Virus record (IMG/VR): IMGVR_UViG_2671180846_000035
DNA: 19,993 bases
DNA from: a virus
Lineage: Duplodnaviria > Heunggongvirae > Uroviricota > Caudoviricetes
Reading direction: 5' to 3' (one strand)
Shown: positions 1 to 17,036 of the stretch, one piece after another
How the letters are laid out: each line of letters begins with the position of its first letter
Numbering within the stretch: position 1 is the first letter of the stretch
Notes under the pieces: model-generated
Told to the model about the DNA's origin: nothing
Databases searched by the model: none
What the model saw: only the letters and a program-made list of their open reading frames with translations
Program-made: the position numbers and the translations under genes

Positions 1-699
1 TTATGATGATGCCGGTGCATTTATCTCCAGCACCAGACTTTCTATCTCAACGCCATACGCTGCATTTTTTGTAACATCCGTCAGCGTCAGCGCATTCAGT
101 CCCAGTGTCAGACTGTCTTTTATAACCTGGAATGCCGGGCCAGCCACTCCATTCAGTTTCGGAGTAACCGTGGCACTGCCGGCGGTGAACACCAGCTCCA
201 GCGTCTGCCAGTCGTTACCGTAATCGCCGAACTCCCCCAGCTTCGTGTTTCCGGCTTTCCTGTGATGCATCAGATTCACTCTGCCGTCAGTGGTCTGAGT
301 GAAGTACGACATCAGGAACGGATTACCGGTACCCGTCATCGCCACACCATCAGGAACGGGAGCATCCGTATACAGATAAATCCCCAGCCCGAACTGATTG
401 TTGGTCAGTGCGCCTGACAGGCGGAACTTACAGGTCAGTCTGCCGCCCTGTGTCAGCAGGGTAATTGCGTCATCCACCGGATGCGTCAGGGACCAGGTTT
501 TATTGCTCTGCTTGGTGATCTTAAATACACCATCTGACAACTGAATTCCGCCATCCTTAATGCTCCAGCCCTGCGCAGCAGCCTCTCCGGCTGCCGGCAG
601 CAGGGAGATTGTGCGAACGGACGTATCTGCAGACGGACCCGATGGCGTGTTGCCGCCGGGCGAGGGTTTGATTTCCGGTGCCTTACCACTGATGAAGGC
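1..699 (-). CDS. C-terminal portion of the NanS-p-like esterase (putative carbohydrate-binding domain); frame is open from the N gap to the stop at 1-3
   Basis: The 179-aa ORF 1..540 starts at a TTG, and the same frame reads without a stop back to the N run at 699 (linker-like ...PEIKPSPGGNTPSGPSADTS...). Size and position fit the C-terminal domain of prophage NanS-p esterases. Joining to the upstream ORF across the gap is inference. Confidence 0.5.
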   Translation of the reverse strand, partial: AFISGKAPEIKPSPGGNTPSGPSADTSVRTISLLPAAGEAAAQGWSIKDGGIQLSDGVFKITKQSNKTWSLTHPVDDAITLLTQGGRLTCKFRLSGALTNNQFGLGIYLYTDAPVPDGVAMTGTGNPFLMSYFTQTTDGRVNLMHHRKAGNTKLGEFGDYGNDWQTLELVFTAGSATVTPKLNGVAGPAFQVIKDSLTLGLNALTLTDVTKNAAYGVEIESLVLEINAPASS

Positions 700-749
700 N
701 NNNNNNNNNNNNNNNNNNNNNNNNNNNNNNNNNNNNNNNNNNNNNNNNN
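700..749. other. Assembly gap (run of 50 N)
   Basis: Run of n characters in the sequence; true length and content unknown, so frame across it is undefined. Confidence 0.95.
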
Positions 750-1912
750 TTCAGAATAGCGGTTGCCATACGATCCGGAATAATGCTCCTGCGCGCCCAT
801 GAACTGAAATGCGTCTGGCGATTTGATGATACCCAGTTTTTGTTCGTTCGGGATGCCGAACCGTAATATCCCTCACTTGCAGCATCCGGATCTTCCGTTG
901 GTGCGTTGGTGGAGGTATTGTTGCCACTACCATCGGTCAGGAATGGCACAAAGAAAACGTTGTCGCTCTCCCTGTTTTTGTACGCCCCGTAAATGGTGTC
1001 GTACTGCGTGCCGTAGGTGTTTTTCCAGTAATACGTCGTGTCACCACAAATCCATGGCACACTTGCCGCTCTGCCTCCATGACACTGCGTGTTAAACTCG
1101 GTAATGTCCGCACGAAACTGTTTCAGCATGGCCGCAAACAGCGGAGGTTGCTGTGAGTACGTAGCGGCGCTCATGTCAAATTCGCCCTGCATCCAGCATA
1201 CGGCCAGCAGCATGTTTTTTGGGTTTTTCTGCAATGCGGCCTTCGTGCGCAAAATCAGGTCCTGATATAAAGGTTTACCCACACCCCAGCGAGCCGAATC
1301 CTGACTGGCTCCTGTGGACTCGCTGAATGTCCCCTCCGCGCCCTGGGTGAATGCCGAACCACCACGACAGCATGGAACCAGTAAAATCCCGGCATTCTGT
1401 GGAATGTAAGGCAACAGGCGTTTGGCAATATGCAAGCCCTGTCCGACACAGCCATACTGCCCTTTGCTCAGGTCTGCATTCGGGTGATTCAGTACGCTCA
1501 TATCCTGAACATCATGCAGGCAGTGATCTGCCGGAATGATGTCGTTAAATGCGCATGCTTTACCACCGGGAGTCACTGTGTTGCGACGGGCCAGTTGCTT
1601 AATGCGTGGGTGGGGCGCATCGTAAGAATCCGGCAGCGGCATTCCCTCACCATATGACATGGCATTGGATTGACCAGCAAGTACCACCACGTAATACCAC
1701 TCCGGCACGCTGCCGTGCTGGGGGGAATCAGGTGAGATGTCTGTAGTGCCATCGGCCACCATTGCCTGCATTAGATACCACGGGGTGCCGGGTTCGTAGG
1801 CAACCCGCGTCTCCCCCTGAAGATGCCACCCTTTCGCAAGATGTTCATTCACCTTTTGAGTCAGTTCAGCCTGTGTCATGGCTGTAATCAGTGCAAAGTT
1901 CTTACTGGTCAT
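750..1912 (-). CDS. nanS: Sialate 9-O-acetylesterase, NanS-p-like (N-terminal DUF1737-like segment plus SGNH hydrolase), 5' portion up to the gap
   Basis: ORF 683..1912 (409 aa). Motifs VLAGQSNAMSYGEG, APHPRIKQLAR, FNDIIP, CCRGGSAFT, CWMQGEFD match my recollection of E. coli NanS/YjhS and prophage NanS-p. ATG at 1912 overlaps the lysC stop (ATGA). Confidence 0.7.
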
Positions 1913-2220
1913 TGTGTTACTCCCGTCTGGTGTGTCAGTTCGGCTATTCTCTTATCCAGTTCAGCAATGGCCCGTTTATCCGCGTTACAGGTTTCCAGTG
2001 CATCCAGAAGGCGGTCGCCCCATATTCCGAGGTTTCCCCATGTGGGTTGGTCAGGGAAGGGGGGAGGCGTTACCGGCATGGTCAGCGTCTGCGGTATAAG
2101 CCGGACTGACGGCGCTGGCCGTGGCGCGTTCTGCGTGCCTGCGCAACCTGTCAGTAAAACGAGCGTCAGGCAAAGCGTGGGCGCATTCATCTTTTGCAAT
2201 ATCGTTGCGTAGCTGTTCAC
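1909..2220 (-). CDS. lysC: o-spanin lipoprotein (LysC/Rz1-like)
   Basis: Signal peptide with lipobox (LCLTLVLLTGCAG) and a proline-rich periplasmic region; overlaps the 3' end of the i-spanin gene as in P2 lysB/lysC. Start may be the GTG at 2220 (GGAGAGG Shine-Dalgarno upstream) or the ATG at 2190. Confidence 0.7.
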   Translation of the reverse strand: MNSYATILQKMNAPTLCLTLVLLTGCAGTQNAPRPAPSVRLIPQTLTMPVTPPPFPDQPTWGNLGIWGDRLLDALETCNADKRAIAELDKRIAELTHQTGVTQ

Positions 2221-2458
2221 GTCTTACCTCTCCGTCCTGATTGCGTTGCTGATTGTCCGCGCGGAGTTGAGCCAGCACCTGCTGCATATCCTGTACCCCG
2301 GCGCTGATGATATTCAGTGTGTCGACGGTACTTTTCAGGGTGCTGGCCTGCGCTTCGTTTCTGGCGTTCTCCCGGCCCAGCGACCACGACAGACGCATGG
2401 ATGTTCCCCATGCGGCAATCAGAAGGAAAGCGACGCCAAGCGTGGGCCAGAGCTTCAT
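2051..2458 (-). CDS. lysB: i-spanin (LysB/Rz-like), 136 aa from the internal ATG
   Basis: N-terminal TM segment (MKLWPTLGVAFLLIAAWG) then a coiled-coil-like periplasmic domain. The ATG at 2458 overlaps the endolysin stop (ATGA); the 183-aa track ORF is an upstream extension. Confidence 0.65.
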   Translation of the reverse strand: MKLWPTLGVAFLLIAAWGTSMRLSWSLGRENARNEAQASTLKSTVDTLNIISAGVQDMQQVLAQLRADNQQRNQDGEVRREQLRNDIAKDECAHALPDARFTDRLRRHAERATASAVSPAYTADADHAGNASPLP

Positions 2459-2847
2459 GCCGGATAGGCTCCGTGTGGTAACTGAAAATGCGGTCCGTCT
2501 TTCAGGGTCTTCCAGTCGCCGCCCCATTCCACCGGAATATTCAGTTCCCGGCTGGCCTGTCTGAATGCTGCTGCGATTTTTTCGTACAGCGGCCATTCCC
2601 ATGACACCTGGCTGCCAACATAAGCCACAACATCCACGGCATGCCCTGTGAGATGGCGACTGTTCATGGTCTGGCTCTTGCCTGTGGTCACGAGCTGCTT
2701 CTGACGATAACGACTGCGCAATCCTTCGGTGATACCAAAATCCACTTCCGAGATTTCCAGCGCCCGTCGGGTCACTTTCACCAGATCAGGATTTACACCC
2801 TGCAAATTCTTTTCGCTTCGGCTGCTGAATTTAAATGTGTTGCTCAT
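2455..2847 (-). CDS. Endolysin, peptidase M15 family (L-alanyl-D-glutamate endopeptidase type)
   Basis: 130 aa with the Zn-binding HxxGxAxD-like motif (HLTGHAVDV) and a C-terminal WGGDW..DGPHFQL typical of M15 endolysins. AAGGAGAGG Shine-Dalgarno upstream; start overlaps the holin stop. Confidence 0.8.
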   Translation of the reverse strand: MSNTFKFSSRSEKNLQGVNPDLVKVTRRALEISEVDFGITEGLRSRYRQKQLVTTGKSQTMNSRHLTGHAVDVVAYVGSQVSWEWPLYEKIAAAFRQASRELNIPVEWGGDWKTLKDGPHFQLPHGAYPA

Positions 2848-3167
2848 TCGTTCCTCTCCTTCACCCTGCGATCAAATATTGCAATAACCTTGTCGCGTGC
2901 TTTCTCTGCGCCCATAAAACCGATTGAGGCACCAAAAAACGTCACTGCATCCTCAGGGATCCCGAAGAAGCGCAGCGACCCGGCCACGGCCATGGCAAGA
3001 ACGCCGCACGCCAGCGATCCCGTTACGGTCTGAACCAGTGTTCGTCCGTCATAAAGACTCATCAGCGCGGAAATGCTGACAGCCGCGCCTACTGCATACA
3101 CCGTTGGCAGGTGGTCAAAGAGCCACGCAATAACCTGCTCTGTGATCCCTGTTTGAATGGTGCTCAC
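2844..3167 (-). CDS. Holin (about 107 aa from the GTG start)
   Basis: Two to three hydrophobic TM segments and a charged C-terminal tail (RRVKERNE). The GTG at 3167 follows a GGGGGGAG Shine-Dalgarno just after the gene X stop; the 180-aa track ORF (2844..3386) is an out-of-frame upstream extension across X. Confidence 0.6.
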   Translation of the reverse strand: MSTIQTGITEQVIAWLFDHLPTVYAVGAAVSISALMSLYDGRTLVQTVTGSLACGVLAMAVAGSLRFFGIPEDAVTFFGASIGFMGAEKARDKVIAIFDRRVKERNE

Positions 3168-3169
3168 TG

Positions 3170-3370
3170 CTACTCCCCCCACAACTGAATCATTTCTCGT
3201 TTCTTCTTCTCCGGCTCCGGCATCTCCACTTCCTGCCCGGCGTCCAGAAATACCTGCTGACAGAGTCCGGGGTTGGCATCCAGCACCTTTTCGGTGACGC
3301 CCCGTGTCGTGCCGTAGTACCGGAAACAGAGCGAATCCACGGTGTCGCCTTCCAGTGCCTTCACTTTCAT
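3170..3370 (-). CDS. X: Phage tail protein X (P2 gpX family, LysM-like)
   Basis: MKVKALEGDTVDSLCFRYYGTTRGVTEKVLDANPGL resembles P2 gpX. The ATG at 3370 overlaps the gene L stop by 1 nt. Confidence 0.8.
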   Translation of the reverse strand: MKVKALEGDTVDSLCFRYYGTTRGVTEKVLDANPGLCQQVFLDAGQEVEMPEPEKKKREMIQLWGE

Positions 3371-3864
3371 CAGCACAGCTCCGCAAACATTCGCGGTCGT
3401 CCCAGAATGTCAGAGATGGCCCAGCTCACATCGCGCCACAAATCCGATGTCTGTATATCCAGTGCGTCCGCCCGGCGGTCGCCCTTGTCCGTTGTGTCCG
3501 CATCGCGGTAACGCTCCAGAATCAGGGCGCGTGTGGCGGTATAAACAGCATTGCGCCAGTGCCAGAGATTGACGCTTTCTCCGTTAATTACAGGGGCCGG
3601 AACATCGGCCAGCGTCTGATAGCCAGCCGCCTGTTGTTCCTGCTGCCATGCTTCCAGCTCGCGGGTAACGTGTGCTATGGCCCCGGTGGCGGTATGCAGC
3701 AGGCGGGAGGTGGTCACGCGGCCCGGCAGTCGTACCGCCAGACGCAGCTCACGCAGCACAATATCCGGCCAGAATGCACCCGCTGAAATGCGAGTGTCGC
3801 CATCATCGGTATCGGTGATGTCGTCCTCTGCGGGGCCGGGGTTAGTTCTGGCAACCATACTCAT
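3370..3864 (-). CDS. L: Head completion/stabilization protein (P2 gpL family)
   Basis: Synteny (M-L-X) and size. ATG at 3864 preferred for its AGGAG Shine-Dalgarno; the track ORF starts at a GTG at 3873. Confidence 0.75.
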   Translation of the reverse strand: MSMVARTNPGPAEDDITDTDDGDTRISAGAFWPDIVLRELRLAVRLPGRVTTSRLLHTATGAIAHVTRELEAWQQEQQAAGYQTLADVPAPVINGESVNLWHWRNAVYTATRALILERYRDADTTDKGDRRADALDIQTSDLWRDVSWAISDILGRPRMFAELC

Positions 3865-3965
3865 GGGGTTCACTCCTGAAAAAATCGGGCGGTGGGTGCG
3901 CGGTGTAAACGGTCACGGAGTCAAACCGGAACACCGCGCACGCCGCCCGCTGACGGGGTCAGTCG

Positions 3966-4766
3966 TTAACCGCGCTTTGCCTTCTGCGTCGCGGTGGTTT
4001 TTCGTGTTGCAGGCTTCCGCGTTGTCTTTTTATTTTTGCTGCTTTCGTCCTGCGCCTGCTGTGCGCTGGCGTCTTCTGGTTCGGCTGCGGAATCGGCTTT
4101 TTTCAGGGCGCGGGAAAGGGTTGCAATCTCGCGTTTCACACCTGCGTTCGGGTTCAGGTGCATCGCTTCGCGCAGCAGCTTCAGTGATGAGGCCATGTTG
4201 TCTGCATCGGTCAGGCCACGACGGGCAAAGGCACACGCCTTGCATAATTTGGCGCGCACTTCGTCCGGAATGTCCTGGTTGGCGACAATTTCCCAAAGTG
4301 TGTCCAGTGGTTCGATAAAGGCGGATAAATCCGCGTCGGCATCCGTCCCAGCCTGCGTCAGTACCGGGTTGCAGATTTCTTCGGTCAGTACCGTGGCAGC
4401 AGTACGGCCAAAGTTATCCGGCATGATGAGGTTGTGACGGACCACATATGCACCAATACGCAGCGCCAGCGGAAGATCGCCGCAGTCAATCGCCCACACC
4501 ATCAGCGTGGCAATTACTTCGTCCTGTTGCCCGCCGTCAGCCTCCAGCGTTCCCTCAATCCAGCCGGAAAAGTCCGGCAACAACTCTTTTTTGATGGCGG
4601 CTTTCGCGCTTCTGGCCTGTATGGCCTTTAGCCTGGCCTGTGCCAGACGCAGACGATACAGCACTTCTTCATGCGCGGTACACGCGGCGTGGTCCACACC
4701 TTCATTCGCCCGGCCTGCGCGCTGTGCCATCACGTTCTGCCAGTGTTGTTGTGCAGGAGTAATCAT
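3966..4766 (-). CDS. M: Terminase endonuclease subunit (P2 gpM family)
   Basis: 266 aa with a lysine-rich C-terminal tail, immediately downstream of the capsid gene; GGAGAG Shine-Dalgarno before the ATG. Confidence 0.8.
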   Translation of the reverse strand: MITPAQQHWQNVMAQRAGRANEGVDHAACTAHEEVLYRLRLAQARLKAIQARSAKAAIKKELLPDFSGWIEGTLEADGGQQDEVIATLMVWAIDCGDLPLALRIGAYVVRHNLIMPDNFGRTAATVLTEEICNPVLTQAGTDADADLSAFIEPLDTLWEIVANQDIPDEVRAKLCKACAFARRGLTDADNMASSLKLLREAMHLNPNAGVKREIATLSRALKKADSAAEPEDASAQQAQDESSKNKKTTRKPATRKTTATQKAKRG

Positions 4767-4811
4767 TTTTTCTCTCCGTTACAGGCGGGCATGATGCCCG
4801 CCGTGAGTTGA

Positions 4812-5864
4812 TTAGCTGTCGGCGAACTTCAGGCCAGTGACCATCGCGCACTTGCCATAGTCTTCAACGACATAAGCGTCATTGATGGACTGGTAGGTGG
4901 CGATGCGGTTGTATTCCGGCTCGTCTTTCATCAGACGACGCATTGAACCTTTCTGCCAGTAAATCGACAGGTTGTTGAACGAGGTGATAAGCATCGTTGC
5001 ATCCGGGAAGAACGGCGCAAGGAACACGCCCAGCCCGCCAATGGTGCGCGATGACAGGATGAGCTGCCCGGCAAGTAATTCCGCATTGGGATTCTGGCCG
5101 CTGATGCTGTTCAGCACGGGCAGACGCAGCGAGTTAAACAGGTTGCGCCCCATAATCACCACGAGGTCGTCAGCTTCCTTGTGCCATTCATCCAGCAGGG
5201 ATGAGCGCGCATCCTGTACCAGAGCATCGGCATTCGCATACTTACCCGCGTGCGCCACAGTGTTGTCCATGTTGCGGGAGGTCAGCGTCACGTCATTCAT
5301 TACGCGCTCGCTGGCATCGGTTCTGATGTGCTCCAGCCAGCCCACGTTAACGTCCTGAAGCAGCTTGTTGGTGTGAAAATCAGACTCGTAGGCGTGGGAT
5401 GTGCCGTTAAAGCCAATCATGATGCGATCAAGCGCTACCTGCCGGGCGATCTGTGTACTGATACGGGACTGAAAATCGCTGTGGGCCGCCCAGGTATCAA
5501 GCTGTGGGTACGAAATAAAGGTATCGTAGTTCACCTGTTCGCACTGGTACTGACGAGACTTCATATCGATCACGTTATTCGGGTTACGGCGTTTGATGCC
5601 GTCATAACTGCTATTCGTGCGCGCAATTGGCCCGGTGGTGTCCGGGAGGATTTTTTCGCCTTTCTGGTCGGTCACGCCGATCACGTTAATTCTTTTCGTA
5701 AATTCGGTACTTTCCTTTGAGGCGTTTTCAAAACGCTGCTGCACCGCGGGTTCCACGGTAAATCGCGATACCAGTGCAGATACCGGGATATTGTTAAGCG
5801 ACGCCTGCTGCGCCATATAGCAACCCAGCTTGTTGCGGGTAATATCTGACATCACCAGATTCAT
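4812..5864 (-). CDS. N: Major capsid protein (P2 gpN family)
   Basis: 350 aa; segments FTVEP, GFNG, LVVIMGR, ENLSIY-like and YVVEDY match my recollection of P2 gpN; position between O and M. Confidence 0.9.
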   Translation of the reverse strand: MNLVMSDITRNKLGCYMAQQASLNNIPVSALVSRFTVEPAVQQRFENASKESTEFTKRINVIGVTDQKGEKILPDTTGPIARTNSSYDGIKRRNPNNVIDMKSRQYQCEQVNYDTFISYPQLDTWAAHSDFQSRISTQIARQVALDRIMIGFNGTSHAYESDFHTNKLLQDVNVGWLEHIRTDASERVMNDVTLTSRNMDNTVAHAGKYANADALVQDARSSLLDEWHKEADDLVVIMGRNLFNSLRLPVLNSISGQNPNAELLAGQLILSSRTIGGLGVFLAPFFPDATMLITSFNNLSIYWQKGSMRRLMKDEPEYNRIATYQSINDAYVVEDYGKCAMVTGLKFADS

Positions 5865-5887
5865 AAAAAATTTGCTCCTTTGTCTTA

Positions 5888-6724
5888 TCAGAAGTCAGCC
5901 AGCTGGTCGGAGGCTGCGCCCGTTGCGGTGAAGCGGTTCTGCGGATCGCCGTCCTGCGTGCGCAGTTTTTCCTTCAGTGCTGTCAGCTCTGTGGTCAGTG
6001 ACGTGATTTTCTGGCGGTCCTGCTGATGGCGGGTTTCCAGCACATTAAAACGGTCGATAATGTCGACCTGTGATGTTGCAACGCCTTCCACCGCTTCCTG
6101 AATACGGGAGAAACTGGCGTCATCCGCTTTGCGGCCACGACCAATAATCCCCATTACGCGGTTAAACCACTGGGTGCCTTCTTCCTGGCGTTGTTCTGCC
6201 ATTTCGATGATTTCAGACTCGATGGCTTCGGAGATAAGCGGTGCTTCACCCTGGATACTGTTGAACGTCATCACCGCCTGACGCTGCTGTGCCGTGAATT
6301 TCAGGCGCTCAGTGCCCAGGCTTGCCGGGGTGTCGGTCATCGCCAGCCCGACCAGATAGGCACGCCCGTTAACGGAGAACTGCGGGTGCAGTTCGATACT
6401 GGAATAGATTTTCTTGCCGTCAGCGATAAGCTGCTTCATGCGCTCGGTCGGTTCGATTTCTGCATACAGCGCAGTACGTCCGGCCAGCGGGCCTTCCGTA
6501 ATATCTTCCGTACTCAGCGCGGTGACATCGCCCATTGCGGAAAATTCGCTTGACGGGCATGGCGAGAGATAGTGCTCAACGTTCACGCGGGCAGCGTAAA
6601 CATCCGGGTTGAAGTTCTCGGCGGCTTCACGCAGATGTACCGGGCTGATTTCGCGGCCATCAACAGTTGATCCGGAGACAGCCACGCGAAACTTTTTGCG
6701 GGATGTCTTTTTTTCATTAGCCAT
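5888..6724 (-). CDS. O: Capsid scaffolding protein (P2 gpO family)
   Basis: Resembles P2 gpO (KKFRVAVSGSTVDGREIS..). The ATG at 6724 has an AGAGGGG Shine-Dalgarno; the upstream ATG at 6757 has none. Confidence 0.85.
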   Translation of the reverse strand: MANEKKTSRKKFRVAVSGSTVDGREISPVHLREAAENFNPDVYAARVNVEHYLSPCPSSEFSAMGDVTALSTEDITEGPLAGRTALYAEIEPTERMKQLIADGKKIYSSIELHPQFSVNGRAYLVGLAMTDTPASLGTERLKFTAQQRQAVMTFNSIQGEAPLISEAIESEIIEMAEQRQEEGTQWFNRVMGIIGRGRKADDASFSRIQEAVEGVATSQVDIIDRFNVLETRHQQDRQKITSLTTELTALKEKLRTQDGDPQNRFTATGAASDQLADF

Positions 6725-6878
6725 AGTTTTTGCCCCTCTGACTGGTTCTTCAGTCATGATGGCAAAGCGTAACAGGCTGATACAAAGGGATTTTGTTGTA
6801 AGAAAACGGCCAGAACAGGGGGTTAAGGAGAACAGTTTCGCGCGCGGGTAATCTTCCTGTAATTACTCAGGGGGAGCA
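6725..6878. promoter_or_regulatory. Divergent late promoter region between O (minus) and P (plus)
   Basis: 154-bp intergenic region between divergent structural operons, as in P2. It contains TGT...ACA-type partial dyads, but no confident match to the Ogr-dependent TGT-N12-ACA site. Confidence 0.4.
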
Positions 6879-8630
6879 ATGATTCAGGACGCTTTTGTGC
6901 GCCAGCGTGCGCGGCAACTTTACTGGCAGGGTTATCCGCCCGCAGAAATATCACGTCTGATGGGAATAAACCCGAACACGATTTATGCGTGGAAAAAACG
7001 CGACCAGTGGGATGAAACGCCACCCGTGCAGCGTGTCACGCAGTCCATCGATGCGCGCCTCATCCAGCTTACTGAAAAACAGAATAAAACAGGCGGTGAC
7101 TTTAAGGAAATAGACCTGCTGACCCGGCAGCTTAAAAAACTGCATGATGGCCAGCCGGATGCGACGGTCACAGGAAAGAAAGGCCGGGCGAAAAAACTCA
7201 AAAATCATTTCACGCCGGAACAGATTGCCGCACTGCGGGAAAAAATCATCAGCAGGCTGGAGTGGCATCAGCGGGGCTGGTTTGACTCCCTGACCCTTTG
7301 CAGGGAAGCCGGGATACGTAACAGGATGATCCTGAAATCCCGACAGATTGGGGCGACCTGGTATTTTGCACAGGAAGCTCTGCTGATGGCGCTGCGTGAC
7401 GATGTGGCGCAACCTTACCAGCGTAACCAGATTTTTTTGTCTGCGTCGCGTCGTCAGGCGTTCCAGTTTAAAAGCATTATTCAGAAGGCCGCGGCTGAAG
7501 TTGATGTGGAGCTGAAAGGGGGCGATAAAATCATCCTCTCCAACGGCGCAGAGCTGCATTTTCTCGGCACTTCTGCTGCGTCGGCACAGTCCTATACGGG
7601 CAATTTTTATTTTGATGAATTTTTCTGGGTCAGTCGCTTTGCTGAACTGCGCAAGGTGGCTGGCGCTATGGCAACCCTCAGCGGACTGCGGCGCACCTAC
7701 TTCTCCACGCCATCCACCGAAACGCACGAGGCATACGCCTACTGGAACGGCGACCGCTGGAACGAGAAAAAGGCCACGCATAAACGCCAGCGTTTTTCTG
7801 TGGACTGGAAAACGCTGCATAACGGGCTTATCTGCCCTGACCGGACGTGGCGGCAAATTGTCACGCTGGAAGATGTGGTCAATCACGGCTGGAAACACAC
7901 CGATATCGACGAAATTCGTGATGAAAACACCGAAGACGAGTTCCTCAATCTCTATATGTGTGAGTTTGTCCGCGAAGGGGAATCGGCATTTAACCTGAAT
8001 ATCCTGATTGGCTGCGGTGTTGACGGATACGACGACTGGAAAGACTGGAAACCTTTTGCTCCCCGCCCGATGGGGAATCGTCCGGTATGGATTGGGTATG
8101 ACGCAAACGGCAGTAGTGGCAACGGCGACAGCGGCGCTGTGTCCGTGGTGGTTCCTCCGGCTGTTCCTGGTGGCCGTTTTCGAACGGTGGAGACGCGACG
8201 CGTTCAGGGGCTGGAGTTTGAAGAACAGGCCAGAGTCATTGAAGAGTTCACGTATCGCTACAACGTGGAACACATCGGCATTGATGTGACGGGCGGGAAC
8301 GGGGAGGCTGTTTATCAGATAGTGAAACGGTTTTTCCCTGCTGCTATTCCGTACACCTTCACGCTGTCATCAAAACGGTCGCTGGTACTGAAAATGCTGC
8401 AAATAATGCGTGCCGGGCGGTGGGAATACGATCGCGCCGAACGCGAGCTGGTCGCGGCCTTTAACGCCGTGCGTAAGGTGAAAACACCGGGCGGCTTTAT
8501 CACTTACGAAACGGACCGCGCGAGGGGGATCAGCCACGGCGACCTTGCGTGGGCAACCATGCTTGCTGTCATTAACGAACCGATTGGCGGCGAAGGAGAA
8601 AACGAGCGTTTCACGGTTATGGAGTTCTGA
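6879..8630 (+). CDS. P: Terminase ATPase (large) subunit (P2 gpP family)
   Basis: 583 aa; N-terminal MIQDAFVRQRARQLYWQGY...ISRLMGINPNTIYAWKK is terminase-like; GGGGGAG Shine-Dalgarno; divergent from O as in P2. Confidence 0.9.
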   Translation: MIQDAFVRQRARQLYWQGYPPAEISRLMGINPNTIYAWKKRDQWDETPPVQRVTQSIDARLIQLTEKQNKTGGDFKEIDLLTRQLKKLHDGQPDATVTGKKGRAKKLKNHFTPEQIAALREKIISRLEWHQRGWFDSLTLCREAGIRNRMILKSRQIGATWYFAQEALLMALRDDVAQPYQRNQIFLSASRRQAFQFKSIIQKAAAEVDVELKGGDKIILSNGAELHFLGTSAASAQSYTGNFYFDEFFWVSRFAELRKVAGAMATLSGLRRTYFSTPSTETHEAYAYWNGDRWNEKKATHKRQRFSVDWKTLHNGLICPDRTWRQIVTLEDVVNHGWKHTDIDEIRDENTEDEFLNLYMCEFVREGESAFNLNILIGCGVDGYDDWKDWKPFAPRPMGNRPVWIGYDANGSSGNGDSGAVSVVVPPAVPGGRFRTVETRRVQGLEFEEQARVIEEFTYRYNVEHIGIDVTGGNGEAVYQIVKRFFPAAIPYTFTLSSKRSLVLKMLQIMRAGRWEYDRAERELVAAFNAVRKVKTPGGFITYETDRARGISHGDLAWATMLAVINEPIGGEGENERFTVMEF

Positions 8631-9676
8631 TGAGCAGAAAAAATAAAAAAGTGCGCATGAGTTCACGCATTGATCTCGCTGATGCGCTCAGGAAAGAATC
8701 ATCGCTCAGTGCATTCACATTTGATGGTCCTTATCGCCTGACCGGGCATGACCTGCTGGACAATATGTACTGTGCTGATAACGGACGGTGGTATGAAACC
8801 CCGGTGGACTGGTACGGTCTGGCAAGAGCAGCCCGGCAAACGTCCTGGCATCAGTCTGCGCTTTACTTTAAGCGCAATGTATTACTCGGTTGCTACATCC
8901 CGCACCCGCTGCTTTCCCGGCAGGATTTCTCGGCGCTGGCGCTGGACTGGTTTGTGTTCGGTAACGCATTCCTTGAGCTTAGAAGCAATATGCTCGGCGA
9001 ACCGCTTAAATTACGGCACGCCCTGGCGAAATACATGCGACGCGGAAGCGATCTTGAATCATGGTGGTATGTGCAGGATGGCAAGGACGCGTTCCAGTTT
9101 CGCCCTGGCAAAGTGTGCCACCTGATGAATCCGGATATTAACCAGGAAATCTACGGCATGCCGGAATATCTTGGCGCATTACTCTCGGCCAGCCTTTCTC
9201 ATTCGGCGGACATGTTCAGAAAACTGTACTACGACAACGGATCCCACGCCGGGTGCATCATCTACATCGGTGCAGCGCAGGTAAACCGCGAAAGCATGGA
9301 CTCCCTGAAAGAAACGTTACAGGGCGCGCGTGGTGGTGGTGCGTTTAAAAACGTACTCATCCATGCGCCCAACGGGGGCAAAGAAGGTGTGCAAATTTTG
9401 CCGTTCCAGCAGATCACTGCAAAGGATGAGTTCATGAATGTTAAGGCGGCATCCCGTGATGATGTGCTGGCTGCGCACCGCGTTCCGCCGCAACTGATGG
9501 GGGCGATGCCGGGCGAAAAAAGTGCGTTTGGTGATGTGGAGAAGGCCGCGCGGGTTTACGCAATTAACGAGCTGATGCCCGTTATGGAGGCCATGAAGCA
9601 CATCAATGACTGGCTTGGCGAAGAGGTGATCCGCTTTAACCCTTACGCACTGCTAGATACCCAGCCCACATCCTGA
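8630..9676 (+). CDS. Q: Portal protein (P2 gpQ family)
   Basis: 348 aa; start overlaps the P stop (TGATG); last gene before the cos-side intergenic region, as in P2. Confidence 0.9.
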   Translation: MSRKNKKVRMSSRIDLADALRKESSLSAFTFDGPYRLTGHDLLDNMYCADNGRWYETPVDWYGLARAARQTSWHQSALYFKRNVLLGCYIPHPLLSRQDFSALALDWFVFGNAFLELRSNMLGEPLKLRHALAKYMRRGSDLESWWYVQDGKDAFQFRPGKVCHLMNPDINQEIYGMPEYLGALLSASLSHSADMFRKLYYDNGSHAGCIIYIGAAQVNRESMDSLKETLQGARGGGAFKNVLIHAPNGGKEGVQILPFQQITAKDEFMNVKAASRDDVLAAHRVPPQLMGAMPGEKSAFGDVEKAARVYAINELMPVMEAMKHINDWLGEEVIRFNPYALLDTQPTS

Positions 9677-9703
9677 CGCGCTTCGCTTGTCTGCTGCTTC
9701 GCC

Positions 9704-9726
9704 GGGGCATAAAAAATTTATGCCCC
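9704..9726. terminator. Stem-loop downstream of Q (GGGGCATAAA-aaa-TTTATGCCCC), candidate terminator
   Basis: Perfect 10-bp inverted repeat about 30 bp after the Q stop. No clean U tract follows on either strand, so intrinsic terminator function is uncertain. Coordinates approximate. Confidence 0.3.
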
Positions 9727-9729
9727 GAC

Positions 9730-10165
9730 TCTCCAGCTCCTGTATCAATCAGATAATTTCACGACGCTTTTCTGCTTATTGTCATCATCGGCGGTCAGAC
9801 TCTTACGCAATCCCACCGCGTTGACTGCATGTTCTCGCCGCCTCAGTGCGATTTTGACGGCCTTATCTGCCACCCATCAAATCAAAAGCCCTCACGTCTT
9901 TTTCACGCTCAGCGTGAGAAATACAGCCATTCTGTTGTGTCGCTGCGACATCGTTCAGGGGATGCTATTTACCCCCTGAAACGCGGGCTGTTCCCCCGTC
10001 ACCTGCGCGCAGAAAAAGCGCGTTTTTTTGTGCACGCACGGATCCTTGACGGATCCAGCCGCCATGCGGGCCGGAAGGGTAAAAAGTCGTTCAAAAAAAT
10101 TGTGCAAACTTGTGCACTATTGTGCAGCAGGGCGATGCGCGATTATCGCCCTGGTTTGAGGGGGA
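9730..10165. other. Non-coding cos-proximal region (expected location of cos/packaging site by P2 synteny)
   Basis: About 490 bp without a credible ORF between Q and the next gene. Contains several palindromes (about 9903-9917, 9954-9980, 10129-10152) and three TGTGCA repeats at 10-bp phasing (about 10101-10126). The P2 19-nt cohesive-end sequence as I remember it was not found. Confidence 0.35.
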
Positions 10166-10756
10166 TCAGGTGTTATTTTTATCTGTCGTCAGTGGGCTAA
10201 ACCATCCACGATTTACATCGCAGGACTGATGCGTTCTGTCCTCGTGTTTCTCCTGCCACAATGCTTTTCCGCCAGCCTTTATGATGGCTCTTTCAACATC
10301 CCGCTCGTATCGCAAGGGCTGAAATACGTCATTAATGAAATATTCGCTTATGTCCGGAAGCGATACTGCAAAATTATTTGTTTGTTGCGCCGTCCTGCTA
10401 TGCAGCAAAGCGGCATACTTTAATGCGTCCTGTGCTTTCTGGAATTTAAGTGCATAGTCAGTGGCGATTTTTTCCAGTTCAGCGATTCGGTTGTCTTTGG
10501 TTTCCAGCCAATCAAGTAGCGCCAATACTTCAGGATCCCCGACATCCAACACTGTTACGCGTGATTTTTCATAATGTTCGTCGGCAAGAGTTCGGCCAAT
10601 TTTGAAATCTCCATCATCACCATAACCGGAGCAGGCATAAACAACCTGTGCTCCAGATATTCGCTGAATTGACATTTCCTCGCCGCAAATAGGGCATTTC
10701 GGTACTGGCACAGGTGAATAACGTTCACGTAATGCCTGATAGTTGATTTCGCTCAT
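10166..10756 (-). CDS. Ead/Ea22-like family protein with N-terminal zinc-ribbon motif
   Basis: 196 aa; CPICGEEM...YACSGYGDDGDF resembles a Cys4 zinc ribbon; the coiled-coil segment LLDWLETKDNRIAELEKIA resembles Ea22-like proteins; AAGGAG Shine-Dalgarno. Confidence 0.5.
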   Translation of the reverse strand: MSEINYQALRERYSPVPVPKCPICGEEMSIQRISGAQVVYACSGYGDDGDFKIGRTLADEHYEKSRVTVLDVGDPEVLALLDWLETKDNRIAELEKIATDYALKFQKAQDALKYAALLHSRTAQQTNNFAVSLPDISEYFINDVFQPLRYERDVERAIIKAGGKALWQEKHEDRTHQSCDVNRGWFSPLTTDKNNT

Positions 10757-10819
10757 TAAGTCGTTCTCCTTGTTTATGTTCTGAGGTGGAGAGCAGGGCG
10801 AACTCGCCCTGATGTTTTG

Positions 10820-11131
10820 TTATTCAGGAAATAACGCCCGGATATTTCCGGCCATCTGACTGGTTATCTGTGCGGTTGATACTGGCTGTGATGCGGGGCG
10901 TTCTGTCCTGGTTTGTGTCACTGATAACGCTTCATCACCAGCCCATGCAGCCAGTCGATAAGCCTCTGCCGGATTCATTTTCAGAAGTGCCAGCCCGGCC
11001 AGAAAAGCCACGCGTTGGCCGCTTTTGCGGGCTTCTGGTGTAAGGCTGTCCAGCCAGGCGCATGCTTCTCCTTCGTTCTTGACGGCGGTGGGCTTCAGAT
11101 AGAAACTTATCCGTCTGGTTGGAGTCGTCAT
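10820..11131 (-). CDS. parR: ParR-like centromere-binding protein (103 aa from the internal ATG)
   Basis: RRISFYLKP...LDSLTPEARKSGQRVAFLAGLALL aligns with my recollection of R1 ParR (RRTIAFKLNP...LDSIPQGERSRLNRAALTAGLAL). The ATG at 11131 has a strong AAGGAG Shine-Dalgarno and sits 4 nt after the parM stop. Confidence 0.65.
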   Translation of the reverse strand: MTTPTRRISFYLKPTAVKNEGEACAWLDSLTPEARKSGQRVAFLAGLALLKMNPAEAYRLAAWAGDEALSVTQTRTERPASQPVSTAQITSQMAGNIRALFPE

Positions 11132-11135
11132 TGGT

Positions 11136-12095
11136 TTACTCCTTGTCCATTGCGTACAGCCCATTAACCAGAGCAAACTGTGGCACCCCGTCCGCGATGA
11201 AAGTCGCATTAACTCCGCAGGCTTCGCGGATAGCGGGTGCCACAATCTCCGCCCCTCCACCGACAACCATCACCCGCCCGTAACCCGAAAAACCCGCCAG
11301 CGCGCGGATCACGCGTTGTTTCAGTGTTTCTTCCTTTTCACGAATAACCGCCATCAGGCTGGCGTAATGCGCGTCATTGTGGATGTGCTGGCGCAGCCAG
11401 GCTTCATCATGGCGATGTTCGATAATGGTATTGGCGATGTGGTGACTGGTGCGCATACCGTTAGTGGCCATCACCGACAGTACGGCATCGGCCATCAGAG
11501 AAACGCCCACGTGTGGATCGCAAAACACCTGGCTGATACCTGCCAGTTGCCCCTGAACCTTTGCCACATCCAGAGTGGTTCCGCCCAAATCCACAATCAG
11601 CAGGGATTCAAACGGACTCATGTCAGCCAGTGCCTTAAAGCCAGCCGGAATGGATTCAGGCATAACCCGTACGTTACGGATAGTGAATGCTTCGCCGTTC
11701 TGGTACTCCACCGGGCGCATGACGTTCGCTTTTTTGCGGTTGATGTTGGCCATGTCCGGCTGTGCGTTTGTATCGAAATACTCGCTCAGTGGCAGGGTGA
11801 CAACCACATCCACTTCCTGTGGTGTGATGCCTGATTTGACCAGCGCGTGATGAATGGCAATTATATTCACATCGCTGTACTGGTATTGCGTGTCGGTCGT
11901 CTGGACAAAGCGATCGCTGACCGGATCAAAACCATAGCGCACGCCATCAAGCATGTAGTTCGCGGGCTGCGTGCCACCGAACGGCGCAGACCATTCCGAC
12001 TTGAAGCTGTTCGGGCTGATGGCGTTGCGGCGTTCGCCGTTCTCAGTCCATGCCAGCTTGATGTTGGTGGAGCCGTCGTCGATACAAATTTTCAT
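11136..12095 (-). CDS. parM: ParM/StbA-like actin-type segregation ATPase
   Basis: 319 aa. Motifs IDDGSTNIKLAW, ISPNSFK, YQYSDVNIIAIHHAL, VMPESIPAGF, LIVDLGGTTLDV, GVSL, FSGY..VMVVGGGAE and LVNGLY are collinear with plasmid R1 ParM as I remember it. Confidence 0.85.
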   Translation of the reverse strand: MKICIDDGSTNIKLAWTENGERRNAISPNSFKSEWSAPFGGTQPANYMLDGVRYGFDPVSDRFVQTTDTQYQYSDVNIIAIHHALVKSGITPQEVDVVVTLPLSEYFDTNAQPDMANINRKKANVMRPVEYQNGEAFTIRNVRVMPESIPAGFKALADMSPFESLLIVDLGGTTLDVAKVQGQLAGISQVFCDPHVGVSLMADAVLSVMATNGMRTSHHIANTIIEHRHDEAWLRQHIHNDAHYASLMAVIREKEETLKQRVIRALAGFSGYGRVMVVGGGAEIVAPAIREACGVNATFIADGVPQFALVNGLYAMDKE

Positions 12096-12099
12096 GTCG

Positions 12100-12230
12100 C
12101 TTTTCCTTGTGTTGATTAATTAATCGGTTACAGGATTTTTAAATCCCGCTTTTGCCTGTTTTGTGCGCGCTTCATATATCGCGGCACGTTTTTTGCTCAT
12201 TTACGGGATTTGTGAGTCCCGTTTCTGTCT
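12100..12230. promoter_or_regulatory. Candidate parMR promoter/centromere-like region (paired imperfect palindromes)
   Basis: Two related 18-bp dyads, cAGGATTTttAAATCCcg (about 12131-12148) and CGGGAtttgtgagTCCCG (about 12204-12221), plus repeated TTTTGCCTGTTTT-like T-rich motifs upstream of parM; partly inside the 3' end of A. Confidence 0.3.
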
Positions 12231-15012
12231 GTTTTTTGTTTCCACTGGTCAGGCTACCCCGCAGCAGGTCTGCTTTGCGGTGGGCGCGTTCAGTGGTTTC
12301 ACTGATTCTCTGTGCGTGCACTGCGTCACGGATGGCGCGCAGCATGTCAGAAAGCACGGTAACGGGGGTTTTCATGGTGTTCTGGTCCTGCTGAAGTGTG
12401 GATGCCAGGTGTGCGGCGGCTTCGGGGTCTGATGCCCCCAGCTGTTCCAGATAGCTGGCGACCGGGTTATGGCGGATCTCCGTGCTGCTTACGCCGTGAT
12501 TACGGCTCAGGCGCTGCCAGAGTTGCGTGATTCGGCTGTCCGGGCGGGTATCTGGTTTGCGTACAATTTCAAATCCCTGCGGTGCAATGATGCTGCCGTC
12601 AACGTACAGACTGCCGCCCCGTAACAGGTGCTGCATCTGCTGTTCACCGATATGCAGGCCGAGAGATTCAGCAGACTCCCGCCATTCTTTAGCGAGTAAC
12701 TCGTGATTATCAGGCAAAGGCCGTGGCTGTTTGCGGCTCTGTGTCCAGTTCTGCATTTCATCACTGCTGTTTTTTGCCTGTTTGTCACGCAGCGAACGCA
12801 TCAGCGCCCGGCGTTCGTGCCGTTTCAGTGAGCGCATCCATTCATTCACGTCAACGCCGTCAGGAAGCTGCGGCCACGGTGCTGGCCTTTCTTCCGGCTG
12901 TTCTGTCCCGTTGTTGTCCGTTTCCTGTACACGGGGACAGTTATTGCCACGAGTCCAAGGGGCGGCAGGGCCGCCCTGAAGGTCAAAACCATTTTCGCGG
13001 GTGCTGTCTTCCGCTTCCGGTTTACGTCTTACCAGCTTCCAGTTATCCGGGTGCGTGCACACACGGGAGGATTCCCCGATGAGTGGTGACCAGATCCCGT
13101 AAATCTGTACGCTCTGTTCGCCGTAATCGTTCAGCTCATCTGCGAGGTCGTAGGCGGTGCGAATCAGGTAGTCTTTGCGTGGAACAAGTACGCCGCCCTG
13201 TTTCTCAATGTAGGTGGCAAAACACCCGGCATCAGCGGCAGCGAGTACCGCATCCATTGCATCATCCTTCAGCCGTTGTGGGCCTTCCGGGTTGCGTGCC
13301 ATCTGGCTGGCAAGGCGGCGGAGTTCACGCCATACCTGACGGGAGGGGATGCCAAAGAACTGGAACTGGCGGACCCGGTGAAGGCGTGCCCAGCCGATGG
13401 CGCGTTCCACGCTCTCGGCCATTGATTTTCCGGTTTCGTGGTCAACGCGTGGCTTGCCCGTTTTCGGGTCGATGCCATCCACGGCGCGGCTGTCCAGGTT
13501 CTTTCCGATGTAGGTGGCGATGTAGCTGGTTGGCGTGCCTTTTGAGCCGTCGACATACTCCACCTTAAAGCGCGGAGTAATATCATTGCCCAGCTCGTGG
13601 CGGTCTTCCTGAATGGCAATATCGCGGGTGTGGGACACAATGGTGTCGATTTCTTCCGGATGAGCAAAGACCATCATATGCCAGTGCACGGTGCCGTCAT
13701 GGTGAGGCTCCACCGTGCGGATGCCATACCAGCGCAGGCCGTCGCGGTTCAGTTTCTTGCGGACCGCCGCAAAAAACGTGTTAACCAGGTAATCGCTGGA
13801 GTCGCGCATGGTGGCCCCGTTCCATTTGGGATTCGGATGACCGTTCTCTGTTGTGGCGTGGTATTTTGACGGGCAGGTGACAGTCAGAAACACCGCTCTG
13901 TCGCCACGGGCTTCGGCCAGAAGTTCCAGCCCCTTCATGGTGGCCATCATTTCTGCCTTACGGTGAATCGGGTTACTTACTCCCGCGTAATACACTGTCT
14001 CGAGATCAATCGTGAACCCGTCTTCGTTTTCCAGCATGAAACTTTTCAGGAAATCGCGTGTTTTCTCGCGCTGTGCGCGAAACTCGCTTAACGCGTCCTG
14101 GCTCAGATAGGGTGATGTTTTTCTGGAAACCAGACAGGCGGCGCGGAGTTGTTCTTCTCTCCACTCGCAACGTAACAGCCACAGTTTGCGTTTCCACCAT
14201 TCCGCACAGGTCAGGCGAAGGATTGCGCCCGGCAGCAGCTCCGTGTCCGGTTCATTCCTCCGGTCTTTGTCTGTTGTCAGAGCGTCATAATGTGGAGGCA
14301 TAGCGTGCAGGTGTAACGCCATGCGGGCCAGCATCTGATACGCCTTCAGCGTTACATCCATGGTCAGCTCGCCATCGGTCGCGCCAAAGCCATCGCAGAG
14401 TTTTTCAAAAGTGCCACTGAACATCGCCGCCGTCATGGTGGCCAGCGTCTGTATCTGGTGTTTGTTGAGCTGCGGCAGGTAAAGCAAATCGTCCAGGCGT
14501 TCGCGTCCGGCAAGGGAGCGATAGCCCGGTGTCAGCCAGCGGCTGTCGGTGCGGTCCAGACGTTCGAATATTTTGCGCAGGGTTCCGCGCGCGTAGCGTT
14601 CAGCCTGCCAGCTCTTTTTGCCTTTCTGACGATCGGCTTCCTGCTTCTTGCGCAGAAAAGAGAGGTGGCGGCTCAGAGGTTCACGCAGATAAACGGGAAG
14701 CACCTTCAGTGTGGCAAAAGCACGGGCCACCGGGTCTTGTTCTGTTGCCTGACGCTTGCTGATGATGCTTTGTGCCAGCTTTTCACGCTGTCCGGCTTCC
14801 TCAAGGGATGCCATGAGTTTTTTACCCACGGTGGATTGTGCGAAAAAGGCTTCTTCCTTCGCTTCCTGTTCTTCCTGTGCCCTTTTGTTTGCCTCAAGGT
14901 AGTAACGGATGGCGCGTTGCAGGTCGGTTTCAGTTTCCTGCCTGCGCTCCGTAAATCTGGCCGGATCAATGGCTGGCCGTGGTTCATTCCAGCTCCATGC
15001 AAACGCACTCAT
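12172..15012 (-). CDS. A: Replication initiation endonuclease (P2 gpA family, rolling-circle HUH type)
   Basis: AWSWNEPR near the N-terminus, VEPHHDGTVHWHMMVFAHP (HUH motif) and YIATYIGKNLD (catalytic Tyr region) match P2 A. ATG at 15012 overlaps the upstream gene stop (ATGA); the track ORF extends to 15039. Confidence 0.9.
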   Translation of the reverse strand: MSAFAWSWNEPRPAIDPARFTERRQETETDLQRAIRYYLEANKRAQEEQEAKEEAFFAQSTVGKKLMASLEEAGQREKLAQSIISKRQATEQDPVARAFATLKVLPVYLREPLSRHLSFLRKKQEADRQKGKKSWQAERYARGTLRKIFERLDRTDSRWLTPGYRSLAGRERLDDLLYLPQLNKHQIQTLATMTAAMFSGTFEKLCDGFGATDGELTMDVTLKAYQMLARMALHLHAMPPHYDALTTDKDRRNEPDTELLPGAILRLTCAEWWKRKLWLLRCEWREEQLRAACLVSRKTSPYLSQDALSEFRAQREKTRDFLKSFMLENEDGFTIDLETVYYAGVSNPIHRKAEMMATMKGLELLAEARGDRAVFLTVTCPSKYHATTENGHPNPKWNGATMRDSSDYLVNTFFAAVRKKLNRDGLRWYGIRTVEPHHDGTVHWHMMVFAHPEEIDTIVSHTRDIAIQEDRHELGNDITPRFKVEYVDGSKGTPTSYIATYIGKNLDSRAVDGIDPKTGKPRVDHETGKSMAESVERAIGWARLHRVRQFQFFGIPSRQVWRELRRLASQMARNPEGPQRLKDDAMDAVLAAADAGCFATYIEKQGGVLVPRKDYLIRTAYDLADELNDYGEQSVQIYGIWSPLIGESSRVCTHPDNWKLVRRKPEAEDSTRENGFDLQGGPAAPWTRGNNCPRVQETDNNGTEQPEERPAPWPQLPDGVDVNEWMRSLKRHERRALMRSLRDKQAKNSSDEMQNWTQSRKQPRPLPDNHELLAKEWRESAESLGLHIGEQQMQHLLRGGSLYVDGSIIAPQGFEIVRKPDTRPDSRITQLWQRLSRNHGVSSTEIRHNPVASYLEQLGASDPEAAAHLASTLQQDQNTMKTPVTVLSDMLRAIRDAVHAQRISETTERAHRKADLLRGSLTSGNKKQTETGLTNPVNEQKTCRDI

Positions 15013-15398
15013 GGCTGGTATCCCGTCACGCGCTGCCACTCCTGTGAGAAGAGGGCGGAAAGGCGGTTAAATTCAGCGGAGTATTCACTCAGCGAGGCAC
15101 ACCCGCCAGCAGTGCGATGCGCCAGCATTGCCGCAAATATGGAGGCCGGGGAGTCGTAATACGCCAGCAGTGATTCGCCGTGTGGTGTCAGGCAGTGCAA
15201 CGCCAGCCCGTGTGGTGTGAAGTCCACGCGGTAGCAGTCGTCTACTGTGAAATAAAGGGTGTCTGCATTCTCCGGTTTTGTGGTGCGTGCTCTGTTGTCA
15301 CGACCACGGATGTAGAGATCAAATAATCCCTGAAGAACGGGAGCCAGACGGGTGTCCTGTGTGCGCACCCATCTTGTGAAGTCATGAGCGTCAATCAT
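15009..15398 (-). CDS. Hypothetical early-operon protein (129 aa)
   Basis: ORF with the right orientation, immediately upstream of A and translationally coupled to it; no family recognised. Confidence 0.5.
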   Translation of the reverse strand: MIDAHDFTRWVRTQDTRLAPVLQGLFDLYIRGRDNRARTTKPENADTLYFTVDDCYRVDFTPHGLALHCLTPHGESLLAYYDSPASIFAAMLAHRTAGGCASLSEYSAEFNRLSALFSQEWQRVTGYQP

Positions 15399-15506
15399 GC
15401 TGCAATTCTCTTTACTACAGATGTGCGAAGGCTTCCTGCCAAAAAACTCAGAAGCGGTCGGTTACAGGAATTGACGTTCTACGAGTAGTTATTGCTGGCT
15501 TGAGGT

Positions 15507-15925: not shown

Positions 15926-16011
15926 TACGCCTCCTTGGTGTGTGTGAATACCTCTGCGAATGCAGATTGTGTTCACATTTTTTTATTTAAGCTGGGGTTT
16001 TATTTATGCGG

Positions 16012-16364: not shown

Positions 16365-16375
16365 CGCAACACCCT

Positions 16376-16654: not shown

Positions 16655-16664
16655 AAAGCACCTG

Positions 16665-17015: not shown

Positions 17016-17036
17016 GATGATGCTCTGTTCATTGTT

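Follow-up and report, generated by a model that had tools for sequence, protein, structure and literature searches.

The sialate O-acetylesterase NanS of Escherichia coli is active on 9-O-acetylated N-acetylneuraminic acid (Neu5,9Ac2), and the catalytic roles of its Ser and His residues are established (PMC10017367). Among its prophage-borne relatives, the NanS-p proteins, esterase activity on Neu5,9Ac2 or O-acetylated mucin glycans is documented for EDL933 and for five O104:H4 alleles (PMC8065619), and the modular variability of the family has been described (PMC10462455). A 2026 preprint assigns the DUF1737 domain of one such protein, gp84 of phage phi24B, as a hexameric capsid-binding (decoration) domain on hexons, and reports that gp84 is processed at Ser/Pro-containing linkers; the N-terminal domain of gp84 reported to be bound to the capsid has ~54 residues. 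The NanS-p family and its presence in prophages without Shiga toxin (Stx) genes are already known. Here we describe a nanS-p-type gene at one end of a 19,993-nt stretch of viral DNA (IMG/VR record IMGVR_UViG_2671180846_000035, Caudoviricetes; hereafter the window, to which all coordinates refer unless given as gene nt or aa). The esterase locus lies on the minus strand, next to the lysis cassette of a P2-like prophage, and is interrupted by an assembly gap. It is likely that the gene is cargo in a late operon of the P_O type, in the P88-like prophage of an O26-like E. coli, and that its apparent split is an assembly artefact. A literature search returned no paper on the P2-like location or on a P2-specific DUF1737 lineage.

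A NanS-p family esterase interrupted by an assembly gap

The window contains a single run of Ns, exactly 50 in number, at positions 700-749. From the ATG at 1912-1910, the minus-strand frame is open for 387 codons and ends at the gap. On the 3′ side of the gap another frame runs open from 699 to 4 (232 codons) and has its stop at 3-1. The two listed open reading frames (ORFs), 683..1912 and 1..540, are the upstream and downstream pieces of the esterase gene; ORF 683..1912 passes through the Ns as X residues and terminates at an out-of-frame stop. Complete genomes have 19 nt in place of the 50 Ns. Since 1163 + 19 = 1182 = 3 x 394, the two pieces are in frame when joined by 19 nt and out of frame when joined by 50 Ns.

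The complete genomes provide the context that the window lacks. Positions 19-19993 are 99.8% identical overall to a P2-like prophage that E. coli O26:H11 strains carry, 11368 and RM10386 among them. In O26:H11, RefSeq annotates one 625-aa 'DUF6645 domain-containing protein' (WP_000202151.1), and the locus reads lysC, esterase, R and S (tail completion), then V, W, J, I, H and G. The O104:H4 outbreak lineage is organised likewise, its protein having 626 aa.

The protein carries the three-domain NanS-p architecture of DUF1737, SASA/SGNH and a lectin-like C-terminal domain. Pfam assigns DUF1737 to aa 4-53 of the upstream piece (E 6.6e-7, 29.5 bits with a cut-off of 24) as well as SASA (PF03629, E 6e-12), and DUF6645 to the downstream piece (E 1e-18). 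Residues 69-388 match the structure of the E. coli NanS/YjhS esterase (PDB 3PT5, E 5.8e-124), while residues 430-622 of the orthologous full-length protein match the lectin-like C-terminal domain of phi24B NanS-p (PDB 6YP6, E 3.2e-31). PHROG 143 spans the whole protein (1-624), which is 82% identical to the NanS-p/SASA esterase of phage 434; NCBIfam assigns no family to the full protein. The SGNH block pattern is that described for NanS-p (PMC10462455): Ser82 of block I is kept in a GQSN motif (aa 80-83, Ser codon 1669-1667) and His368 of block IV in RQTHFS (aa 365-370, His codon 811-809). A QGEFD motif is present at aa 242, and Ser/Pro-rich linkers occur at aa 58 (DISPDSP) and at 405-417 (KPSPGG…PSGPS). 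Taken together, the domains, the 3PT5 and 6YP6 matches and the Ser/His motifs identify the gene product, by homology, as a predicted sialate O-acetylesterase of the NanS-p family.

An earlier note, made from the sequence of the window, had proposed a DUF1737 plus SGNH esterase with NanS-like motifs, whose ATG overlaps the lysC stop and whose frame continues beyond the gap for about 230 codons as a NanS-p-type carbohydrate-binding domain. The profile and structure matches bear out both domain assignments: the NanS and DUF1737 searches that the note had suggested each returned a match. The start/stop overlap is found as ATGA at 1912-1909. The note had further read the two ORFs as one gene with a frameshift created by the gap. 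This stands insofar as complete genomes have a single ORF of 625-626 aa; across the gap, where the note had named a stop and a separate downstream gene as the outcome that would contradict it, these genomes have one uninterrupted ORF and no stop. The part that does not stand is the assumption of one gene copy, as the two halves in the window probably come from different copies (see below).

An acquired segment in the late operon

In P2, lysC overlaps R and runs straight into R and S, and all three genes are annotated as members of the O operon. The esterase gene of the window follows lysC, with a GGGAG Shine-Dalgarno sequence 7 nt upstream of its ATG, and in the prophages of O26:H11 and O104:H4 only 23 nt separate the esterase stop from the start of R. 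No terminator-like site was found on the gene strand between lysC and R. Given this spacing and the absence of a terminator, transcription of the essential R and S genes has to cross the esterase gene, if the P2 operon model applies. The gene would then be transcribed only together with the late genes, in an Ogr-dependent manner, and its translation would be coupled to lysC.

Replacement of R and S by the esterase was considered and rejected, because both genes lie 23 nt downstream in complete genomes. The earlier note's placement of the esterase at the site of R and S is correct in that lysC of P2 runs into these genes, but R and S still follow the esterase in complete genomes. Otherwise the genes of the prophage and the way they are ordered are of the P2 type (Q, P / O, N, M, L, X, holin, endolysin, lysB/C, R, S, V, W, J…), and Pfam GPL, GPA and integrase matches were found in it. 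In the lysis genes, Pfam detects LysC (PF23793, E 5.5e-14) and confirms the M15 endolysin and the holin.

The closest deposited relative without the esterase is P88 (Xuanwuvirus), in which lysB/lysC lead directly to R. DNA homology to P88 ends inside lysC, at about position 1965 and ~55 nt before the lysC stop, and restarts 45 nt into R; R and S are 97-98% identical. The mosaic unit of ~2.0 kb therefore replaces ~98 nt of P88, a stretch that includes ~18 codons at the end of lysC and ~15 codons at the start of R. As neither P2 nor P88 has an esterase between lysC and R, the gene is a mosaic insertion in the late operon, in agreement with the earlier description of the fusion as mosaic.

We scored the prevalence of the gene by the DNA of its N-terminal domain in 5426 complete E. 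coli genomes. It is present in 376 (~7%) and contiguous with lysC in every one (376/376). A related lysB/lysC pair occurs in 1039 of these genomes, and ~36% of these P88-like prophages carry the esterase. The arrangement is not rare and is already annotated in hundreds of genomes. Three GenBank phage records carry the gene, all of them P2-like: vB_EcoM-569R5 and vB_EcoM-705R2 (partial, Peduoviridae) and a P88-named prophage record.

The scaffold is probably a composite of two nanS-p copies

The two sides of the gap match different gene copies. Positions 750-1972 are identical to the P2-like copy of O26:H11 11368 (1223/1223). Positions 1-699 are only 94.9% identical to this copy by blastn (93.7% in a global alignment, with 44 differences), whereas they match, at all 699 positions, a lambdoid nanS-p copy in the same nearest complete genomes, among them RM10386. 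The lambdoid-type 3′ end reads …NAPASS before its stop. In RM10386 the lambdoid copy is located ~880 kb from the P2-like copy, in the context of a Q antiterminator, tRNAs, the SASA esterase, a class II holin and a lysozyme; the copy corresponding to positions 1-699 has a matching lambdoid context in the second genome inspected. With full identity to the lambdoid copy and 94.9% to the P2-like one, the two halves of the gene in the window probably do not stem from one copy.

The position of the gap fits this reading. The P2-like and lambdoid paralogues share two stretches without a difference, gene nt 1102-1165 (64 nt) and 1182-1493 (312 nt). Between these repeats they differ at three positions only (gene nt 1166, 1173 and 1181), all inside 19 nt. 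Because the three single-nucleotide polymorphisms (SNPs) all fall within the 19 nt that the Ns replace, the contig break corresponds to a 3-SNP bubble flanked by perfect 64- and 312-nt repeats. No copy in a P2-like context with the 3′ end of the window was found among the 5426 complete E. coli genomes, where the best matches cover 19-2500 at 98.6%. None of the complete E. coli genomes joins lysC and the esterase to a lambdoid holin either; coverage stops 18 nt before the esterase stop.

Draft assemblies show similar breaks. Of 26 IMG/VR contigs carrying the P2-type N-terminus, 7 break off within the gene and 3 switch to lambdoid flanks. The latter (L003, 5693-9500; L016; L020) lead from P2-like O-N-M-L-X-holin-M15-lysB-lysC across the esterase and on into a lambdoid holin, a YdfR-like gene and a SAR endolysin. 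As this junction is absent from complete E. coli genomes, the three contigs are probably chimeric assemblies formed via nanS-p paralogues. The Peduoviridae GenBank record ON470599 also terminates inside the gene. From these comparisons the window scaffold is probably a composite, in which 750-1912 is the authentic P2-like copy and 1-699 was attached from a paralogue or a collapsed repeat. R and S, which the earlier note expected beyond position 1, do follow the gene in the O26:H11 and O104:H4 prophages, but with positions 1-699 being of the lambdoid type they cannot be assumed for this scaffold.

Several observations weigh against our account of the locus. Late-only expression of the gene is carried over from the P2 paradigm. 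The alleles found in the P2-like context are mosaic, with N-terminal domains 94-100% identical and SGNH domains only 85-88% identical; gene conversion from lambdoid copies thus does occur and could explain the 3′ end of the window. A stop codon marks each end of the window, which was therefore probably cut at gene borders. Position 1 had also been considered as a contig end, and this was dropped because the other window end falls on a stop codon as well. The main competitor is a genuine hybrid allele, in which the 3′ third was converted by the lambdoid paralogue, the gap is a local assembly failure, and R and S lie beyond position 1. The block-wise resemblance of P2-context alleles to lambdoid ones speaks for such an allele, and the 312-nt perfect repeat would be an ample recombination substrate. 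We nevertheless regard it as unlikely, since none of the complete genomes has a P2-context copy with this 3′ end, the rest of the window (99.8%, and 100% over 750-1972) corresponds to O26 prophages whose copy ends in …NSPAA and the stop, and the switch of allele coincides exactly with the gap.

Two further explanations are considerably less probable. A real rearrangement (inversion or deletion) that joined the P2-like prophage to a lambdoid one by a crossover in nanS-p would place a lambdoid holin and endolysin beyond position 1, as is seen in the three IMG/VR contigs that run from P2-like to lambdoid genes through the esterase. That junction is confined to draft assemblies, where chimeric contigs are the simplest explanation, and we consider the rearrangement very improbable. 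The least probable is that the true gap sequence contains a stop or frameshift, leaving two separate genes or a pseudogene. Its sole evidence in the window is that the pieces are out of frame as shown, to which the truncated alleles at 4 of the 26 IMG/VR loci can be added; the gap flanks, however, are identical to genomes that join them in frame by 19 nt, and 15 of the 19 IMG/VR loci with a readable end have intact ORFs of 625-627 aa. The composite scaffold remains the reading that we prefer.

The truncated alleles are of several sizes: 286 aa in L017 and L022, 218 aa in L007 and 273 aa in L025. In L017 and L022 the C-terminus is the usual one (…EINSPAA) and R still lies downstream, a pattern suggestive of an internal in-frame deletion.

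The DUF1737 domain follows phage type in sequence comparisons

The domains of the esterase have discordant histories. DNA similarity to lambdoid nanS-p alleles is ~90% over positions 1-1706 and ends at the end of the DUF1737 linker. A tblastn search with the N-terminal 72 aa retrieved only 3 phage records, all P2-like (2 Peduoviridae and 1 P88-like prophage). The lambdoid N-terminus occurs in 347 phage records, none of them P2-like among the matches listed. DUF1737 of the P2-like copy has a 4-residue insertion relative to the lambdoid type and aligns with both standalone and lambdoid DUF1737 sequences.

A second, divergent P2-like lineage was detected in IMG/VR (L036 5001-6971, L040 5001-6929 and L042 3281-5218) and was not found among deposited phage genomes. 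It encodes a DUF1737-SGNH-C-terminal-domain protein of 642-656 aa between Rz/Rz1 and R, S, V and W, and has a different holin, lysozyme and Rz/Rz1. The P2-type DUF1737 lineage is therefore kept at the position between lysC and R in at least two divergent P2-like lineages. Compared with the O26 P2-like protein, the second lineage is 57-64% identical in DUF1737, 65-69% in SGNH and 31-34% in the C-terminal domain; the corresponding values for E. coli lambdoid alleles are 28-30%, 85-86% and 92%. As judged by these identities, the DUF1737 module tracks the type of phage, and the other two domains (SGNH and C-terminal) track the host's pool of lambdoid nanS-p genes.

A word-indexed protein search with the N-terminal 72 aa returned only fragments of the same protein, and a scan of one genome per species returned no relative. 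An exhaustive HMMER search with this domain against 1.84 billion representatives gave 10 hits only, consisting of short standalone DUF1737 proteins, a low-complexity false positive (P0012) and a 1379-aa protein (P0014). A DUF1737 profile search identified no solved structure in the PDB. The single-sequence AlphaFold (AF2) model has a helix-plus-three-strands fold that agrees with the phi24B description, and is too uncertain for use (predicted local distance difference test score, pLDDT, of 58).

Proposed function and possible association with the virion

We propose that the protein consists of three modules: the N-terminal DUF1737 domain, an SGNH esterase that would remove 9-O-acetyl groups from sialic acids through Ser82 and His368, and a lectin-like jelly-roll C-terminal domain. 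As the N-terminus is a folded DUF1737 domain with no secretion signal, the enzyme would leave the cell by phage lysis, either free or capsid-bound. Outside the cell it may de-O-acetylate free or mucin-bound Neu5,9Ac2, by analogy with the characterized NanS-p esterases, and the de-O-acetylated sialic acids could then be used by sialidases and by the NanT pathway of surviving kin.

Compatible with this account is a role mainly as a virion component, with DUF1737 docking on the hexons of the P2-type capsid and the particles carrying esterase and lectin domains that interact with mucus. On this reading the protein would not chiefly serve as a soluble enzyme providing nutrients to the lysogen population. 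The phi24B preprint, which names DUF1737 a hexameric capsid-binding domain, points in this direction, as do the phage-type dependence of DUF1737 (57-64% against 28-30%), the relation of the SGNH and C-terminal domains to the lambdoid pool (85-92%) and the end of DNA homology to lambdoid alleles at the DUF1737 linker (position 1706). The gene is also placed among virion genes and, by analogy with P2, would be expressed with them. Such a domain pattern is what a module fitted to the virion would show; the pattern is only correlative. On the other side, P2 is not known to have a decoration protein. Lambdoid DUF1737 variants are shared by phages that probably differ in capsid type, such as 434 and 933W (aa 1-33 ~82% identical), and this sharing weakens the case for a strictly capsid-specific domain. 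Confidence in its AF2 model is also low. We therefore hold a mainly virion-associated role to be possible rather than probable.

Equally tentative is the broader proposal that DUF1737 serves as an exchangeable capsid anchor matched to the phage type, with esterase and lectin domains swapped with the lambdoid pool, so that P2-like virions would be esterase-decorated. If the proposal is true, a decoration protein would be on record for a P2-type capsid for the first time, and the virion would carry an enzyme that modifies mucus. The discordant domain histories offer a cheap comparative test of the capsid-binding claim.

This analysis is most useful in showing that the scaffold is probably a composite, and in giving comparative support for a DUF1737 module specific to phage type. 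Where an E. coli genome has several prophages, nanS-p paralogues interrupt or wrongly join its short-read assemblies, and the 3′ end of the window should not be read as the allele of the P2-like prophage. The pool of NanS-p proteins, through which O-acetylated mucin sialic acids are used by E. coli that produce Shiga toxin (STEC), extends beyond lambdoid and Stx prophages: a P2-like prophage supplies a further copy in about 7% of complete E. coli genomes, O26:H11 and the O104:H4 outbreak lineage among them. As a rule, P2-like prophages cannot be induced by the SOS response, and the regulation of this copy therefore probably differs from that of the lambdoid copies.

Features of the locus and other genes of the prophage

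Table 1 Features of the esterase locus and the adjacent lysis genes.
Feature	Position	Strand	Basis
5′ two-thirds of nanS-p-type esterase gene, codons 1-387 (DUF1737, linker, SGNH/SASA)	750..1912	-	translation, Pfam, 3PT5, O26:H11 identity
N-terminal DUF1737 (aa 4-53), in a form specific to the P2-like lineage	1754..1903	-	Pfam, identity comparison, tblastn
SGNH/SASA catalytic domain, aa 72-387 up to the gap	750..1699	-	motifs, 3PT5 alignment
50-N scaffold gap; the P2-like copy has CGTAGCCGGTCGCACCTTA there (gene orientation)	700..749	.	complete genomes
Last third (3′) of a nanS-p gene, with Ser/Pro-rich linker 2 and the lectin-like C-terminal domain (DUF6645)	1..699	-	Pfam, 6YP6
Sequence of the lambdoid-prophage paralogue	1..699	-	identity to RM10386 lambdoid copy
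Junction with lysis cassette: ATGA stop/start overlap 1912-1909, GGGAG Shine-Dalgarno 1924-1920	1909..1924	-	read from sequence
lysC (Rz1-like o-spanin); last ~18 codons (1909 to ~1965) part of the acquired segment	1909..2097	-	Pfam LysC, RefSeq annotation, homology border
lysB/DUF2570	2051-2458	-	Pfam and RefSeq annotation of the 99.8%-identical O26:H11 prophage
M15 endolysin	2455-2847	-	Pfam and RefSeq annotation of the 99.8%-identical O26:H11 prophage
Holin	2844-3167	-	Pfam and RefSeq annotation of the 99.8%-identical O26:H11 prophage

The prophage contains further genes of interest. Between the portal and replication genes, a plasmid-type actin-like segregation module (10820-12095, minus strand) is present in this integrating P2-like prophage. 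It consists of a 319-aa ParM (StbA_N/ParM_N, E 1e-82 and 1e-68) and a small 'plasmid partitioning/stability' partner. The GPA replication endonuclease (12172-15039, minus strand) is ~946-955 aa long; the GPA domain covers only aa 194-518, and no domain is assigned to the long extensions on its N- and C-terminal sides. On the plus strand, two cargo ORFs (17959-18986) are located between the HTH repressor (17539-17943) and the integrase (18992-19993), encoding a 216-aa membrane protein with no Pfam match and a DUF2511 protein; PADLOC gave no meaningful match for them. In O26:H11 11368, the tail genes that the same prophage has outside the window include an inserted gene for a serine O-acetyltransferase (L001, 2190-2762). 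The prophage thus carries both an acetyltransferase-family gene and an O-acetylesterase gene as cargo.

Comparison with known systems

The catalytic domain is clearly homologous to chromosomal NanS (YjhS), as given by the 3PT5 match over aa 69-388 (E 5.8e-124). NanS has one domain and ~330 aa, and its gene belongs to the nanCMS operon, while the prophage protein has 625 aa and three domains. Among P2-like phages, P88 and other Xuanwuvirus (Peduoviridae) phages have the same order of holin, M15 endolysin, lysB and lysC, and R and S at 97-98% DNA identity. In P88, lysB/lysC pass directly to R, whereas the prophage type of the window has ~2.0 kb in place of ~98 nt.

Klebsiella Peduoviridae prophages also encode O-acetylesterase-like SGNH/SASA proteins, which were read as tail or receptor-binding enzymes (PMC12115436). 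For neither of the P2-type DUF1737 domains did deposited Klebsiella phages yield a close relative. With capsid-decoration proteins of the phi24B gp84 type, the P2-like copy shares the N-terminal DUF1737 (29.5 bits, cut-off 24). Its Ser/Pro-rich linkers recall the linker processing of gp84 and are only suggestive in this respect.

The closest match is with the lambdoid NanS-p proteins of 933W (L0105/z1466), phi24B (vb_24B_21/gp84) and 434 (SASA esterase), which have the same three-domain layout and Ser/His motifs. The E. coli lambdoid alleles are 85-86% identical to the P2-like copy in SGNH and 92% in the C-terminal domain. Their DUF1737 domain belongs to a separate lineage (28-30% identical), and the P2-like type is found in none of the 347 lambdoid-type phage records. 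The lambdoid genes are likewise located in the late operon beside lysis genes, but they precede the lysis cassette (Q-stx-nanS-p-S), while the P2-like copy follows it (lysC, gene, R). The P2-like copy thus does not have the lambdoid NanS-p context, downstream of Q/stx and upstream of the holin gene S. The carrier is a P2-like myovirus prophage in place of a lambdoid phage; it is the context of the esterase, and not its family, that differs.

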